Shown here in pieces: positions 8,797 to 13,532 of a DNA stretch of 64,000 nucleotides; position 1 is the stretch's first letter; each line of letters opens with the position of its first letter. The notes below the pieces were generated by a model. The model made no database searches and was not told the DNA's origin. It saw only the letters and a program-made list of their open reading frames with translations. The stretch comes from a virus, in IMG/VR virus record IMGVR_UViG_3300044716_000973, positions 9,120 to 73,119 of that record, one strand, 5' to 3'. The position numbers and the translations under genes are program-made.

Positions 8797-9123
8797 ATGA
8801 AAAAGCTTATTGCATCTGTTCTTGCTGCTAGCATGCTAATTACCACTCCGGCTTTTGCCGAACACCGCAAACGAGACAGAGACTATAGCCAACAGGAACG
8901 CCGTAAAGGTGGTTGTGGCTGGCTTTGTGGAGCAATCATTGGCGGTGTTGTTGTAGGTGCTCTTTCCTCTGATCGTAGAGAACGCAGAGAACGAGAACAA
9001 GAATACGATAACCGTTACTACCCACCAGATTATCGTTATGATAGACGCTACTGCGTTCGCGAACAGATTACCGAATGGTATCGTGGTGAACGTTATGTCT
9101 ATTGGGAAACCCGTTGTAACTAA
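8797..9123 (+). CDS. Exported protein with glycine-zipper segment
   Basis: Signal peptide MKKLIASVLAASMLITTPAFA, GAIIGGVVVGAL, Arg/Tyr-rich C-terminus with a Cys pair; GAGGAG SD. Confidence 0.7.
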   Translation: MKKLIASVLAASMLITTPAFAEHRKRDRDYSQQERRKGGCGWLCGAIIGGVVVGALSSDRRERREREQEYDNRYYPPDYRYDRRYCVREQITEWYRGERYVYWETRCN

Positions 9124-9132
9124 GGAAAATAT

Positions 9133-9573
9133 ATGAAGAAGTTTATTGCACTAGCGCTTATCGCCCTAGCCACCACTCCAGCTATTGCTCAGAAGACACC
9201 AGTTGGTGTTACCTATGACACCACTATTGTCCGTGCCATTGATGGTGATACAATTGTTGTTACCGCGCCATATCTTCCAGCGCCACTGAAGCCTGAGCTG
9301 GGTGTTCGTATCTTTGGTGTCGACACTCCAGAGAAAAGCTTCCGCGCTAAATGTGAAAGCGAAAAGAAGCGTGGTGAGCAAGCTTCTGTCTTTACAAAAG
9401 ACGTAATTGCTGCGACAAAGAAGCACCAGGTTGTTCTATACGATTGGGACAAGTTTGGTGGCCGTATTCTTGGCGATATCTTGCTTGATGGTATGAGCCT
9501 TCGTGATCTGCTTATCAAGAATGGTTTTGCTCGTGAATATTATGGCGACGCAAAGCAATCTTGGTGCAATTAA
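9133..9573 (+). CDS. SNase/thermonuclease-family nuclease with signal peptide
   Basis: RAIDGDTI, VRIFGVDTPE, DKFGGRILG and LIKNGFAREY; signal peptide ending PAIA. Confidence 0.88.
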   Translation: MKKFIALALIALATTPAIAQKTPVGVTYDTTIVRAIDGDTIVVTAPYLPAPLKPELGVRIFGVDTPEKSFRAKCESEKKRGEQASVFTKDVIAATKKHQVVLYDWDKFGGRILGDILLDGMSLRDLLIKNGFAREYYGDAKQSWCN

Positions 9574-9576
9574 TGG

Positions 9577-9607
9577 TTGACATTTAAATCAATCTAGTAT
9601 ATAAATA
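9577..9607 (+). promoter_or_regulatory. Composite sigma70 and T4-late promoter of the tmRNA
   Basis: TTGACA (9577-9582), 17 nt, TATAAATA (9600-9607). Confidence 0.8.
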
Positions 9608-9611
9608 GAAT

Positions 9612-9966
9612 ATCAGTTGTTGACAATCAACAATAAAGGTTCCGAGGACGCGGGGGCAGTACCCGCCACCTCCACCATAGACACTCTGGGCCGAATACAC
9701 ACCGGCTAATAAAAGTTTCGATTACTATTGCTGAAATCCGGGCAATAGAATAGGCAGAGTTTGGAATCGCAGGTACTCTCTAGCCAGAGTGTCTATGATG
9801 GGGGTGAACTAGGATCGACTGGGATGGAATAGGGCGGTTCGAGACTGATTGATTGGCAAAGTGCCACTAAACGTAAATGCAAACGATAACAACGCATATG
9901 AAGGTCTTGCACTAGCTGCATGATTTTTCGGGGGATGGGTTCCACCTAGCAACAGAACGGGCCCAC
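9612..9966 (+). ncRNA. ssrA: Circularly permuted two-piece tmRNA (alphaproteobacterial type): acceptor piece ending CCA 9677, intervening segment 9678-9799, coding piece from 9800; outer ends approximate
   Basis: T-arm GCGGG-GGCAGTA-CCCGC, then CACCTCC-A-CCA pairing with GGGGGTG (9800-9806) with a G3.U70 pair; GGATCGAC after the 5' strand; tag ORF 9879-9923 encodes ANDNNAYEGLALAA*. Confidence 0.95.
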
Positions 9967-10002
9967 ACATACCACGAGTTGTTCTAGAAACACCACGAGT
10001 GG

Positions 10003-10033
10003 TTGACATTTATAGATCTATGGTGTATAAATA
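10003..10033 (+). promoter_or_regulatory. Composite sigma70 and T4-late promoter
   Basis: TTGACA (10003-10008), 17 nt, TATAAATA (10026-10033). Confidence 0.8.
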
Positions 10034-10039
10034 AAATAT

Positions 10040-10295
10040 CGCAACGGAGGTTGGAACCTCCATTGACTCTTACAAAGCTTCAAGTCTTAGGGCTATAGAA
10101 AGCGGAATTATCTAACATCTCAGATGCACAATAATTCCACCGACGAAACCATAATGATTTTGCATTTCCAGTAAGAGGGAAATGGATGGAAGATACCTTC
10201 GTTATTTCTTTTTGTATCTTCTCATAGCGACAGAAAAACTATAGGCTGAGATGCCTGCAAAGTAGTCTCTGTTTGCCAAAGTCATTTAAGATTAG
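10040..10295 (+). ncRNA. Candidate structured RNA or long 5' leader of the cell-wall hydrolase gene
   Basis: No credible + strand ORF; four perfect 6-8 bp hairpins plus two 7-8 bp loop-to-distal complementarities. Confidence 0.55.
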
Positions 10296-10304
10296 AGGAT
10301 ACAA

Positions 10305-10883
10305 ATGAAACTTTTCGAAAATAGAAAAGATTTCCCGTACCTGCGCTGGGCTGAAGGATTCTGCCTTGGTCTTGCTCTTGCTGCAGGTGCAGCAGTTGCA
10401 ATGCCAACTAAGGAACCAGAAGTCAAGATTGTTAAGGTGCCTGAAGTCAAGGTAATCGAAAAAGAAGTTATCGTAAAAAAGCCAGTTTATCTGAGCGCTA
10501 ACGATAAAAAACAAATCCAATGCATGGCCGAGAATACCTACTTCGAAGCAGGCCATGAACCCTACAAAGGTAGGATTGCGGTTAACAATGTTGTGTTAAA
10601 CCGCGTCAAAGATGATAGATTCCCAAAAACACCATGCGGAGTAATTAACCAAAAAGCTCGAGGCGTATGCCAATTTTCATGGAAGTGTGAGGGAGGAAAG
10701 CGAATTCGTGACGGTGTAGCTTTCGCAAAAGCAAAAGAAATCGCCGAACACGTGTACCTAGGAAATTACGGTGACGTAACTAAAGGTGCAAAGTTCTACC
10801 ACGCCGACTACGTAAGTCCTCGTTGGGGTAGAGTCTTTGATCGTACAACTAAGATTGGTGCACATATTTTTTATAGAGGATGA
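10305..10883 (+). CDS. Cell-wall hydrolase, SleB/Hydrolase_2 family, with N-terminal hydrophobic anchor
   Basis: CMAENTYFEAGHEP, AVNNVVLNRV, FPKTPCGVINQ, CQFSW, FYHADYVSPRW and IGAHIFY. Confidence 0.9.
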   Translation: MKLFENRKDFPYLRWAEGFCLGLALAAGAAVAMPTKEPEVKIVKVPEVKVIEKEVIVKKPVYLSANDKKQIQCMAENTYFEAGHEPYKGRIAVNNVVLNRVKDDRFPKTPCGVINQKARGVCQFSWKCEGGKRIRDGVAFAKAKEIAEHVYLGNYGDVTKGAKFYHADYVSPRWGRVFDRTTKIGAHIFYRG

Positions 10884-10889
10884 TTTATT

Positions 10890-11135
10890 ATGGTGGACGA
10901 CGTTATCTTTCAAAAGACTATGTCTAATGAAAAGTTTATTAAAGAGATTGAAAATCTTGTGAAGACGTATAATTTAGATTACATGGATGCCGTCGTCCAC
11001 CTTTGTGAAAAGAATAATATTGAAATTGAGGCTGCTGCTTCAATTATCAAGAATAATATTAAAATCAAATCAAAACTTCAGTCTGCTGCTGAAGATCTTA
11101 ACTATCTTCCTAAGACAGCCCGACTGCCAGTATGA
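10890..11135 (+). CDS. gp33: Late-transcription coactivator gp33
   Basis: EIENLV...YMDAVVHLCEKNNIEIE...LNYLPKTARLPV; position before gp59 and gp32. Confidence 0.85.
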   Translation: MVDDVIFQKTMSNEKFIKEIENLVKTYNLDYMDAVVHLCEKNNIEIEAAASIIKNNIKIKSKLQSAAEDLNYLPKTARLPV

Positions 11136-11710
11136 CGCCGTTCGAGTCTTATAAGACTTTCCTTGCGGTCAAAAGCCACTTTACCAGTGATAGTTATGAT
11201 TACATTAAGTACAATGGTAAAGTGAATGCAAGTTCTACGAGCTTCGAGACTCGTAAAGATAAGTACCAATTTTACAAACTCTCTAAACATAAGAACCCAC
11301 TTCAGTATCTGGTTGCCAACTTTGTTGATGGTGACTTGAAATGGATTGGCGATTTGTTTGATGATAAGTCTGAAAAGCTCTATGCTGACTGGCTCAAGCG
11401 ACAACAATCTCTTTCGTATATTTTTGAGCAAGACCTAAATAAACTGTTGACAGATTTTGACGATAATGTTATTGTAAAGAATGGGCAACACCCATATTTA
11501 CTTAAACAATACTTACGTAGAGAAATCTCGATTGAGACTATTATTATTCTAAATGATATTCTTGGTTTCTTTGGCCACTGGAATAAGAAGATTGAAGATG
11601 GTGTTCTCTGGCCGAACATATATAAAAAGCTAAGTAAGTATAAACCATTCTTTCATTATGACATGTTTAAGTGTCGTAAAATACTGAAAGACAAATTTGC
11701 AGGTGATTGA
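11132..11710 (+). CDS. gp59: Helicase loader gp59
   Basis: YKTFLAVKSHFTSDSYDYIKYNGK, RKDKYQFYKLS and ISIETIIIL. Confidence 0.88.
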   Translation: MTPFESYKTFLAVKSHFTSDSYDYIKYNGKVNASSTSFETRKDKYQFYKLSKHKNPLQYLVANFVDGDLKWIGDLFDDKSEKLYADWLKRQQSLSYIFEQDLNKLLTDFDDNVIVKNGQHPYLLKQYLRREISIETIIILNDILGFFGHWNKKIEDGVLWPNIYKKLSKYKPFFHYDMFKCRKILKDKFAGD

Positions 11711-12591
11711 TGTCTGAATATTTTCGTTACTCTACTGAGCCGGCTAATCCGGCAATGACTGCTCAAGCTCCTCTAGCTTCTTCCAAAGAAACATTTGAAA
11801 AGATGATGGCTGCCAAGCAAGTAAATGATGGCAACTATTGGAATGTGATGTGTGAAGTGTTTGCTGAGGATTTTGAGAATCTTCCTAAAGAACGCTTTAA
11901 GGTCTGGGCATCTGTGATGTCAGTTCCTTTTATGACTCGAGCTCGATTCTTCGATTACTTTGCTGCAGTCCTTCCAGCTGCGAAAGAAGATCGTCGAATT
12001 CGTTACGCACTCGAAGATCCCGATGTAGGGATTACCGAACAAGATCGTGGTATCTATAATCTGTTCGAAGACTTTACAACCTCAATGAATCGTATCCAAC
12101 ATATGGCTCACCTTGTTTTGAACAAGTGGACTCCAGAAGATCTGGCAAAGCTGGATACGATTGTAGAACTTGGCGGCGGCATTGGCGACATGGCTGATAT
12201 CGTCTACAAGCTCGGCTTCAAAGGCAAGTACGTAATTTACGATTTTGCTGAAGTCGGTGCAGTTCAGAAGTGGTATCACGATCAGTTAGGACATACCAAC
12301 ATCGTACATACTTCTGATGTGAATGATCTGTTTGATGCAGATCTTATGATTGGTACTTGGTCATTCACCGAGATGCCAGTCGACCTTCGTAATGATATCA
12401 TGTCAAAGATCGGCCAAACAAAAAATTGGCTAATTGCATATTCTAATGAGATCTTTGGTATCGATAATGATAAATACATACGAGAGGAATTTGTCCCACG
12501 TTTTACCAACCATGATATCGAATATTCTGATATTCCATTCATGCCTTGGGATGGCGGGGCTAAATATCTCTCAATTAAATATAACGACTAA
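11710..12591 (+). CDS. SAM-dependent methyltransferase, putative sugar O-methyltransferase type
   Basis: IVELGGGIGDMA SAM-binding motif, YVIYDF and WSFTEMP. Confidence 0.65.
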   Translation: MSEYFRYSTEPANPAMTAQAPLASSKETFEKMMAAKQVNDGNYWNVMCEVFAEDFENLPKERFKVWASVMSVPFMTRARFFDYFAAVLPAAKEDRRIRYALEDPDVGITEQDRGIYNLFEDFTTSMNRIQHMAHLVLNKWTPEDLAKLDTIVELGGGIGDMADIVYKLGFKGKYVIYDFAEVGAVQKWYHDQLGHTNIVHTSDVNDLFDADLMIGTWSFTEMPVDLRNDIMSKIGQTKNWLIAYSNEIFGIDNDKYIREEFVPRFTNHDIEYSDIPFMPWDGGAKYLSIKYND

Positions 12592-12626
12592 TATAACGTA
12601 CACAACGACATACAAGGAGAATAATT

Positions 12627-13532
12627 ATGTCTTTCGCTGATCTCAAGCGCTCGTCTGCTACCTCATTTGAAAAGCTCACCAAGGAGCTTCAGAAGCAGAC
12701 CACTACCTTCGACCGTTCCGACGATGACAAGTATTGGAAGCCTACATTGGACAAGGCTGAAAATGGCTACGCTGTTATTCGTTTCCTTCCTGCACCGGGC
12801 GGTGAAGATCTTCCTTTTGTTCGTATCTGGGACCATGGCTTTAAAGGCCCAACCGGTCTTTGGTATATCGAGAAGTCGCTGACGACTCTTGGTAAGCCAG
12901 ATCCTGTTTCTGAGCACAACTCTGTTCTCTGGAATACTGGTCTGGAATCGGACAAGGAAAAGGCACGTGACCAGAAGCGTCGCCTGTCTTACATCTCAAA
13001 CATCTACGTTGTTAGCGATCCTGGTAATCGTGACAACGAAGGTAAGGTCTTCCTGTACAAGTATGGCAAGAAGATCTTTGACAAGTTGAACGACCTGATG
13101 AACCCTCAATTTCAGGACGAACAACCAGTAAATCCGTTCGATCTTTGGACGGGTGCTAACTTCAAGCTCAAGATTCGTAAGGTTGAGGGTTACCGCAACT
13201 ACGATAAGTCTGAATTCGACTCTCCCGCACCACTGCTCGATGATGACGCTGAACTTGAAGCGGTATACAAGCAGGAGCATTCGCTCCAGGATCTTGTAGA
13301 TCCAAAGCACTTTAAGTCTTATGATGAGCTAAAGACTCGTCTCAACAATGTTCTGGGTCTTAATGCCGCTCCGGCAAAGATTCGTGGTGTTGAACTTGAC
13401 GAGGAAGAGTACAAGGCTCCGGCCCCAGTCTTCCAGGCAGCTGCTGCTCCAGCCGCTCCTGTTGCTTCGGCAGGCGTCGATGATGACGACGAGGATCTGG
13501 CTTTCTTCAAGCGACTTGCTGACGAAGATTGA
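12627..13532 (+). CDS. gp32: Single-stranded DNA-binding protein gp32
   Basis: NGYAVIRFLPAP, WYIEKSLTTLG, GKVFLYKYGKKIFDK, GANFKLKI, NYDKSEF and acidic tail. Confidence 0.95.
   Translation: MSFADLKRSSATSFEKLTKELQKQTTTFDRSDDDKYWKPTLDKAENGYAVIRFLPAPGGEDLPFVRIWDHGFKGPTGLWYIEKSLTTLGKPDPVSEHNSVLWNTGLESDKEKARDQKRRLSYISNIYVVSDPGNRDNEGKVFLYKYGKKIFDKLNDLMNPQFQDEQPVNPFDLWTGANFKLKIRKVEGYRNYDKSEFDSPAPLLDDDAELEAVYKQEHSLQDLVDPKHFKSYDELKTRLNNVLGLNAAPAKIRGVELDEEEYKAPAPVFQAAAAPAAPVASAGVDDDDEDLAFFKRLADED

Follow-up and report, generated by a model that had tools for sequence, protein, structure and literature searches.

What kind of RNA precedes the cell-wall hydrolase gene of an uncultured T4-like phage? The question arises at a locus in the IMG/VR virus record IMGVR_UViG_3300044716_000973 (T4-like; 73,119 bases, estimated to be 43% complete), of which a stretch of 64,000 nucleotides (nt), positions 9,120 to 73,119 of the record and here called the window, was analysed. 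All coordinates are positions in this window, and the RNA under study lies at 10040-10304 on the plus strand. A first-pass annotation, made from the sequence alone, had marked this region as an unexplained structured RNA with two candidate pseudoknots. Every complementary segment that it named is present where it was placed. The RNA is real, strongly constrained and forms a previously uncatalogued family. On balance, we favour a model in which it would be the approximately 265-nt 5' untranslated leader of a late hydrolase mRNA, acting in cis as a riboswitch-like translational switch. The elements on which the argument rests are the following:

10026-10033, plus strand: T4-type late promoter box TATAAATA, conserved in homologues
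10040-10304, plus strand: the structured RNA
10294-10307, plus strand: translation initiation region, with the Shine-Dalgarno sequence AGAGGA (10294-99), a spacer and ATG (10305-07)
10305-10883, plus strand: cell-wall hydrolase gene, 192 amino acids, Pfam Hydrolase_2 (PF07486, 86.5 bits)

A new RNA family in front of one gene

A scan of 10040-10304 against Rfam 15 (4227 families) gave no match at the gathering score or at E<=10. Within 9400-10500, the Rfam matches were those of transfer-messenger RNA (tmRNA) models at 9579-9967 and chance miRNA-type matches beyond 10306. The RNA family is new relative to Rfam 15, as the first-pass annotation had expected. A ribozyme had been offered as one possible identity; no model of a self-cleaving ribozyme or a group I/II intron in Rfam matched at E<=10, the flanks are not split coding exons, and nothing that we found points to a ribozyme. 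Full-text literature searches yielded no description of this leader RNA. Recently, 8,495 candidate structured RNAs were predicted in IMG/VR (Fremin, Bhatt & Kyrpides, 2023; PMC10690425). These candidates share with the present RNA their source and, for some, a position as cis-regulatory structures directly upstream of T4-type genes (there gp20 and gp32). They differ in that no motif ahead of a hydrolase or lysis gene appears in the main text of that paper, where the word 'hydrolase' occurs 0 times; its candidate lists stand in supplementary tables outside this comparison and may include this RNA.

The RNA was found in front of the hydrolase gene in every instance examined, which bears out its earlier description as a leader of this gene. 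A protein-led search of IMG/VR returned 80 loci, in which the hydrolase is 74-100% identical and the upstream 330 nt are conserved. An RNA-motif search that was blind to the protein returned 108 stretches, and the hydrolase open reading frame (ORF) follows at a fixed distance after 62 of the 62 unique full-length copies. When the most divergent hydrolase was used to start another protein-led search, the covariance model matched directly before the ORF in 79 of 79 loci. A variant of the motif that excluded the consensus loop of helix P4 (see below) added 16 further divergent members, and in the divergent loci examined the hydrolase starts at the end of the model (13/13). The genome record itself contains one copy of the RNA. 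The motif had 0 matches among 185,579 prokaryotic species, each represented by one genome. In 50,697 phage records, blastn found no match to 9500-10900, and there is no close relative among cultured phages. As far as seen, the family is thus confined to uncultured freshwater and estuarine T4-like phages and to one gene.

Conservation is stronger in the leader than in the gene behind it: pairwise nucleotide identity averages 81.4% in the leader versus 73.6% in the ORF, and the leader has the higher value in 78% of 1540 pairs. An upstream ORF or small protein gene within the leader was considered and rejected; the ORFs that begin at two internal AUGs range from 9 to more than 36 codons, and their frames swap between lineages.

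Transcription of the leader

The late promoter box TATAAATA corresponds to the T4 late promoter consensus as given in PMC3014915; it is exact in 53 of 71 homologues, and the remainder carry one- or two-base variants. From the spacing known in T4, the transcript is predicted to start at about 10039-10040. Across the window the box is not enriched (5 sites versus 4.5 expected), and therefore the case for the promoter rests on the conservation of the box and on the presence of a gene for the late-transcription coactivator gp33. An own promoter for the RNA had been proposed before. The conserved late box agrees with this; a TTGACA at 10003-10008, a sigma-70-like -35 element that lies 17 nt upstream of the box and could share its -10 region, is seen in the close kin of the window only.

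In three studies, RNA libraries yielded contigs that span the junction of leader and ORF (X2, 10074-10361; X6, 10172-10351; X1, 10234-10451), and those of X2 and X6 are identical to the window. This is a hint compatible with co-transcription of leader and ORF, and not proof of it. In four runs no contig spans 9964-10055 or 10470-10653, an absence that is uninformative.

The bridging contigs also bear on the idea that the RNA is a stable RNA in its own right or a ribozyme, for example one linked to the upstream tmRNA gene, that is merely co-transcribed with the hydrolase. Such an idea could draw on the tmRNA-like gene found upstream of the leader in 49 of the 52 related loci whose flank extends for 450 nt or more, as well as on a size and a complexity of fold that resemble those of large ornate RNAs. 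However, the start codon always marks the end of the RNA, no terminator-like site is present on the plus strand between the promoter and the hydrolase ORF, the contigs run through from leader to ORF, and no ribozyme family was matched. We consider a stand-alone RNA very improbable.

Secondary structure and covariation

The structure was drafted from covariation seen by eye, refined with two covariance models and counted on model-guided alignments, the final one of which holds 71 distinct IMG/VR sequences. Its elements are:

10046-50 with 10057-61, plus strand: P1, near-5'-terminal hairpin, GGAGG with CCTCC, with a variable loop
10067-73 with 10171-77, plus strand: PK1, pseudoknot of CTCTTAC with the loop of P4
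10083-89 with 10287-93, plus strand: P0, outer helix formed by AGTCTTA, immediately 5' of the Shine-Dalgarno sequence
10102-09 with 10133-40, plus strand: P2, hairpin with a stem of 8 positions
10153-62 with 10277-86, plus strand: P3, long-range helix of AATGATTTTG with CAAAGTCATT, which closes a four-way junction with P4, P5 and P6
10163-69 with 10178-84, plus strand: P4, hairpin, CATTTCC/GGAAATG
10189-96 with 10214-21, plus strand: P5, hairpin, GAAGATAC/GTATCTTC
10227-10276, plus strand: P6, long irregular hairpin comprising P6a, P6b, P6c and the conserved loop TGAGAT (10247-52)
10227-34 with 10268-76, plus strand: P6a, with one bulge
10239-42 with 10262-65, plus strand: P6b
10244-46 with 10253-55, plus strand: P6c

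Standard pairs occupy 93.7% of the 4590 cells (one pair in one of the 71 sequences), compared with 42.6-51.9% in slid controls, in which the 3' partners were moved by 1-3 columns. Both-sided change was found in 30 of 65 pairs versus 22.8 +/- 1.4 in shuffled alignments (n=500), and in 344 cells versus 87.9; 0 of the 500 shuffles reached any of five covariation measures. Since the alignment was fitted to the model, pairing counts lean toward the structure; the slid controls, together with the large number of independent pair types, nevertheless speak for a real signal. Covariation among the gathered homologues is accordingly strong. A de novo search for covarying columns was dominated by clade signal and was informative for P2 and P6 only. 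About 120 positions are invariant, many of them in joining strands and loops.

Folding energy agrees with a structured RNA. The plus strand at 10036-10304 has a minimum free energy (MFE) of -74.3 kcal/mol, whereas dinucleotide shuffles average -56.5 +/- 4.9 (z = -3.62; 2 of 200 shuffles fold equally well), so that the fold is better than in the shuffled controls that had been suggested at the outset. The minus strand also folds well (z = -4.14 against dinucleotide shuffles), and folding energy alone therefore cannot pick the strand. The G.U pairs (358 cells) favour the plus strand, on which 93.7% of cells pair versus 88.6% on the other.

All four hairpins recognised in the first pass (P1, P2, P4 and P5) are confirmed by covariation in the 71 homologues. 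P1 pairs in 100% of cells, with one pair that changes on both sides and three that vary on one side through G.U. On the minus strand, P1 and the adjoining T-rich run (10042-10065) score as terminator-like, and no minus-strand gene is nearby to use such a site. P4 likewise pairs in 100% of cells and has two pairs with both-sided change in 17 sequences, while P5 pairs in 99.4% of cells, again with two pairs changed on both sides. In P2, six of the eight pairs vary on both sides, although a C.A mismatch within it (10103/10139) is invariant in 71 of 71 sequences; this suggests a site of specific recognition or of protonation. In P6, both-sided change affects seven of eight pairs in P6a, all four in P6b and all three in P6c; its loop reads UGAGAU or UGAGAC in 53 of 71 sequences. 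By contrast, P3 shows no both-sided change. All of its 10 pairs are formed in 710 of 710 cells, and six of them vary on the 3' side only (U-A to U.G or G-C to G.U and back). P3, P4, P5 and P6 meet in the four-way junction with almost no linker bases.

The first of the two proposed pseudoknots, PK1, joins CTCTTAC to 10171-10177 within the P4 loop AGTAAGAG, and 7 of 7 pairs can form in 71 of 71 sequences. Its haplotypes are CUCUUAC/GUAAGAG (50 sequences), CCAUUAC/GUAAUGG (11), CUCUUGC/GUAAGAG (9, with a G.U pair) and CCUUUAC/GUAAAGG (1). At the level of comparative sequence evidence, we regard PK1 as proven by three compensatory haplotypes.

The second proposed pseudoknot, CATCTCAG with CTGAGATG (10116-23 with 10246-53), can form in the window but does not belong to the conserved structure of the family. 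It requires the 23 nt that the lineage of the window has gained at the P2 tip (10110-10132), an insertion that is itself a small hairpin (10116-19 with 10123-26). The tip of P2 is an insertion hot spot: it measures 2-10 nt in 56 of 71 sequences, which cannot form the second pseudoknot, and 23-39 nt in the other 15, where some insertions are small palindromic hairpins. Five of these 15 (the window, L166, L128, L149 and L272; hence a matching tip in 5 of 71) have 5-6 nt that are complementary to the P6 loop and 10 have none. Judging from the complementarity, the P2 tip may thus touch the P6 loop as an optional tertiary interaction of some lineages.

The outer helix P0 joins the bases after an invariant TTCAAG to the bases just after P3, and the 3' strands of P3 (10277-86) and P0 (10287-93) are contiguous at 10277-10293 on the plus strand. 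On fixed columns, 76% of P0 cells pair. Such counts (76-82% of cells paired) are unreliable as the aligner does not allow register shifts, and duplexes were predicted for each sequence instead; it is on these that P0 is based. Compensated versions are GUCUUAG/UUGAGAC, GUCAAA/UUUGAC and AGUCAGA/UUUGACU; the window has UUAAGAU. In L096, L172 and L257 the register has moved by three bases and covers UAAG of the Shine-Dalgarno region, and in L102 P0 covers the Shine-Dalgarno sequence itself.

Two further pairings suggested in the first pass were not upheld. The two copies of CTATAG do not close a multiloop, as 10239-42 pairs with 10262-65 and the first copy owes its AT to an insertion in the lineage of the window. 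The local stem GAGAT/GTCTC (10248-52 with 10265-69) fails because changes in the loop are uncompensated and GTCTC lies within the covarying strands of P6a and P6b. Other candidates were tried and rejected as well. For GTCTC with a downstream GAGAC, the first belongs to the same P6a/P6b strands and the second pairs with 10084-89. The P6 loop UGAGAU with GUCUUA (10084-89) is, as seen by eye, uncompensated in the GUCAAA and GUCAGA lineages. A role of CTCTTAC as an anti-Shine-Dalgarno sequence with the P4 loop as a decoy was dismissed, as the two PK1 strands change together in the CCAUUAC/GUAAUGG and CCUUUAC/GUAAAGG lineages while the Shine-Dalgarno sequence remains AAGAGG.

A candidate alternative pairing of the translation initiation region

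The Shine-Dalgarno AGAG is invariant in 57 of 57 homologues. Within each leader, the segment that pairs best with the initiation region was sought, and in the window and many lineages the search led to the same one:

10211-10222, plus strand: candidate anti-Shine-Dalgarno segment TTTGTATCTTCT, made up of the last loop bases of P5, its 3' strand and one additional base

In the window, 10211-22 is predicted to pair with 10294-10305 through 12 contiguous pairs that extend from the Shine-Dalgarno sequence to the A of AUG (-14.3 kcal/mol), which 0 of 300 shuffles match. Among 49 distinct combinations of this segment with an initiation region, 37 reach -10 kcal/mol or lower, 34 beat 95% of shuffles and 12 beat 99%. 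The P5 5' strand GGAAGAUAC resembles the initiation region AGAGGAUAC, and in L278 the initiation region contains an exact GAAGAUAC, i.e., it repeats the P5 5' strand. Individual lineages show matching changes. In L102 a U-A pair of P5 has become C-G and the partner U of the initiation region has become C, whereas in L137 an A of the P5 3' strand has become G, facing a C of the initiation region within 10 contiguous pairs. At the distal column pair 217/321, 30 sequences have U-A and 25 have G-C, a single event.

Of 59 sequences, 31 have an unconstrained MFE fold in which the P5 3' strand pairs with at least four of the six Shine-Dalgarno bases, and 55 have one in which that many are paired with any partner. 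Mean predicted energies are -69.1 kcal/mol for the masked state and -64.5 kcal/mol for the enforced consensus fold, the latter without credit for PK1 or P0. Because these energies are close, the two states can compete.

The favoured model therefore pictures the leader as a three-part switch. When the P5 3' strand is paired with its own 5' strand, the real Shine-Dalgarno sequence would be free and translation would be on; when it is paired with the Shine-Dalgarno sequence and the spacer up to the AUG, translation would be off. A factor that stabilises the fold of junction and pseudoknot would keep P5 shut and permit synthesis of the hydrolase. Potentially, this factor could be a small-molecule ligand or a protein of late infection. 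The first-pass annotation had suggested a switch-like leader that times a lytic enzyme. This suggestion is in keeping with the conserved alternative in which the P5 3' strand pairs with the ribosome-binding site, and the timing function would follow from the pairing model.

Several observations weigh against such a switch. In 15 of the 49 combinations the masking helix does not outperform shuffles, and in the most abundant clade it consists of 8 bp and a short distal stem only. Both-sided events in this helix are few, and a slide by +2 columns gives 24 such cells versus 27. P5 is nearly invariant and so offers little covariation, and a pyrimidine-rich strand will often complement a purine-rich Shine-Dalgarno sequence by chance. 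The register of P0 varies between lineages, and P0 is absent in L081 and L086. The RNA-library contigs show neither the start nor the strand of a transcript, nor do they exclude DNA. Finally, contig L003 (= L157 = L229) keeps the gene with only the 3' approximately 190 nt of the leader.

In L003 the hydrolase is 100% identical to that of the window, and everything 5' of the P3 strand (P1, the 5' strands of PK1 and P0, and P2) is unrelated sequence. Either the 5' domain is dispensable and the contig a natural recombinant, or the assembly is chimeric.

Pairing of the Shine-Dalgarno sequence in 55 of 59 MFE folds would also be expected of a constitutive structural leader, one that does not switch but would either lend stability to the late mRNA by way of its 5' hairpin and compact fold or hold translation at a fixed low level. 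The position of P1 within a few bases of the predicted 5' end is in line with a stabiliser. Yet a simple stabiliser or damper needs neither some 120 invariant bases nor a pseudoknot nor a mimic of the Shine-Dalgarno sequence, and it leaves unexplained why the P5 loop is conserved in its 3' part, where it complements the spacer. We hold this explanation to be quite unlikely.

What could set the proposed switch

If the leader does switch, the factor that sets it may be a metabolite. This is a specific form of the model favoured here, in which the junction, the pseudoknot and the conserved joining strands would form an aptamer that decides between P5 and the anti-Shine-Dalgarno pairing. The invariant positions in joining strands and loops, the complex pseudoknotted fold with its support from covariation, the invariant C.A mismatch inside an otherwise freely covarying helix, the two nearly isoenergetic states and a closing helix that abuts or overlaps the Shine-Dalgarno sequence are all consistent with an aptamer. 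On the other hand, the RNA occurs in one gene context only, that of a non-metabolic gene, it comes without a candidate ligand, and it matches no known Rfam aptamer class. Taken together, a metabolite riboswitch is a tentative proposal that we consider possible and rather doubtful. Equally speculative is the form that it would take, namely a new phage riboswitch class in which the 265-nt aptamer would sense a small molecule of late infection or host exhaustion and free the ribosome-binding site of the endolysin.

In translational riboswitches, an aptamer with a pseudoknot and a multi-helix junction typically has its closing helix beside the Shine-Dalgarno sequence, and a mutually exclusive anti-Shine-Dalgarno pairing lies close in predicted energy. 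The present leader has an aptamer-like fold of this kind, with the closing helix so placed, and is predicted to have the alternative pairing as well, but it differs in being found in phage contigs only and before one gene only, with no Rfam match and without a known ligand. The ydaO/c-di-AMP riboswitch (RF00379) is a large pseudoknotted leader that precedes genes of cell-wall-remodelling enzymes. Our RNA is likewise large, pseudoknotted and placed before a cell-wall enzyme; however, it did not match this family at E<=10 and its architecture is another.

Alternatively, a protein of the phage or the host might bind the folded leader and set translation, as in a translational operator. On T4 mRNAs, translation is set by RegA and gp32, to which such a protein can be likened. 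The use of protein translational repressors by T4-type phages, as covered in PMC3014915, speaks for an operator, as does the invariance of P3 and P5 on at least one strand, which suits sequence-specific recognition. At 265 nt, however, and with a pseudoknot and a four-way junction, the leader far exceeds known phage operators; a partner gene was not identified, though no search aimed at one was made. We regard an operator of this kind as unlikely.

The closest biological precedent comes from T4 itself. In the lysozyme gene e, a simple hairpin hides the ribosome-binding site on early read-through transcripts (McPheeters et al., 1986, as cited in PMC3014915). Late promoters lie inside that hairpin, and late transcripts thus lack the inhibitory strand (PMC3014915). 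Both systems have a TATAAATA late promoter, and, if masking occurs here as modelled, both would be cases of a T4-type phage gating a cell-wall-degrading enzyme at translation initiation, with the Shine-Dalgarno sequence and AUG held in an intramolecular helix (here the 12 bp of 10211-22/10294-10305, in silico). They differ in the enzyme, which here is a Hydrolase_2 protein and not T4 lysozyme. The arrangement described in PMC3014915 also differs from the present one, in which the late promoter lies upstream of the whole leader, about 180 nt before the anti-Shine-Dalgarno strand, in all 71 homologues. Because of this position, late transcripts would carry the anti-Shine-Dalgarno strand together with the large conserved fold.

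Genomic context

The non-coding gap in which the RNA lies (9574-10304) contains two elements, the tmRNA and the RNA at 10040-10304. The neighbouring features that were identified are:

9579-9967 (9585-10014 according to ARAGORN): circularly permuted two-piece tmRNA, Rfam RF01849, 109 bits, tag ANDNNAYEGLALAA
10890-11132: gene of the late-transcription coactivator gp33, Pfam PF16805, 60.5 bits

The N-terminus of the hydrolase is a Gly/Ala-rich membrane segment. Its catalytic domain is 41-46% identical, over 62-67% of the query, to proteins of cultured phages annotated as endolysin or cell wall hydrolase. Judging from these sequence features, the protein is likely a membrane-anchored peptidoglycan hydrolase, an endolysin. 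Downstream of it, Pfam matches at 10890-13532 outline a T4-like cluster of gp33, the gp59 helicase loader, a weak methyltransferase-like ORF and gp32 (140.9 bits).

The tmRNA has a TATAAATA box of its own at 9600-9607. One X1 RNA-library contig omits 96 bases of the tmRNA intervening segment (9688-9785) and has 43 other letters instead; it probably stems from a relative with a different intervening segment. Just 5' of the tmRNA, 9133-9573 encodes a 146-amino-acid protein that resembles staphylococcal nuclease (PF00565, 40.5 bits) and has a signal-peptide-like N-terminus.

Implications for phage lysis

Burst size and phage fitness depend on when lysis occurs. This timing is commonly attributed to proteins, namely holins, antiholins and signal-arrest-release (SAR) endolysins, and in T4 also to a simple hairpin on early transcripts. 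Even without a ligand, the leader described here is a well-defined new RNA family: it has 71 distinct sequences, almost all of its helices covary, the sequence comparison proves a pseudoknot, and it is ready for Rfam. Should it bind a ligand, it would define a new class of riboswitch, unusual in the function that it regulates, and could provide a compact genetic part for controlled lysis. A large, invariant and pseudoknotted RNA in front of the hydrolase gene of a widespread freshwater phage group suggests an additional checkpoint of lysis at the RNA level. If the riboswitch proposal is true, abundant uncultured freshwater T4-like phages would possess an RNA-based lysis clock.

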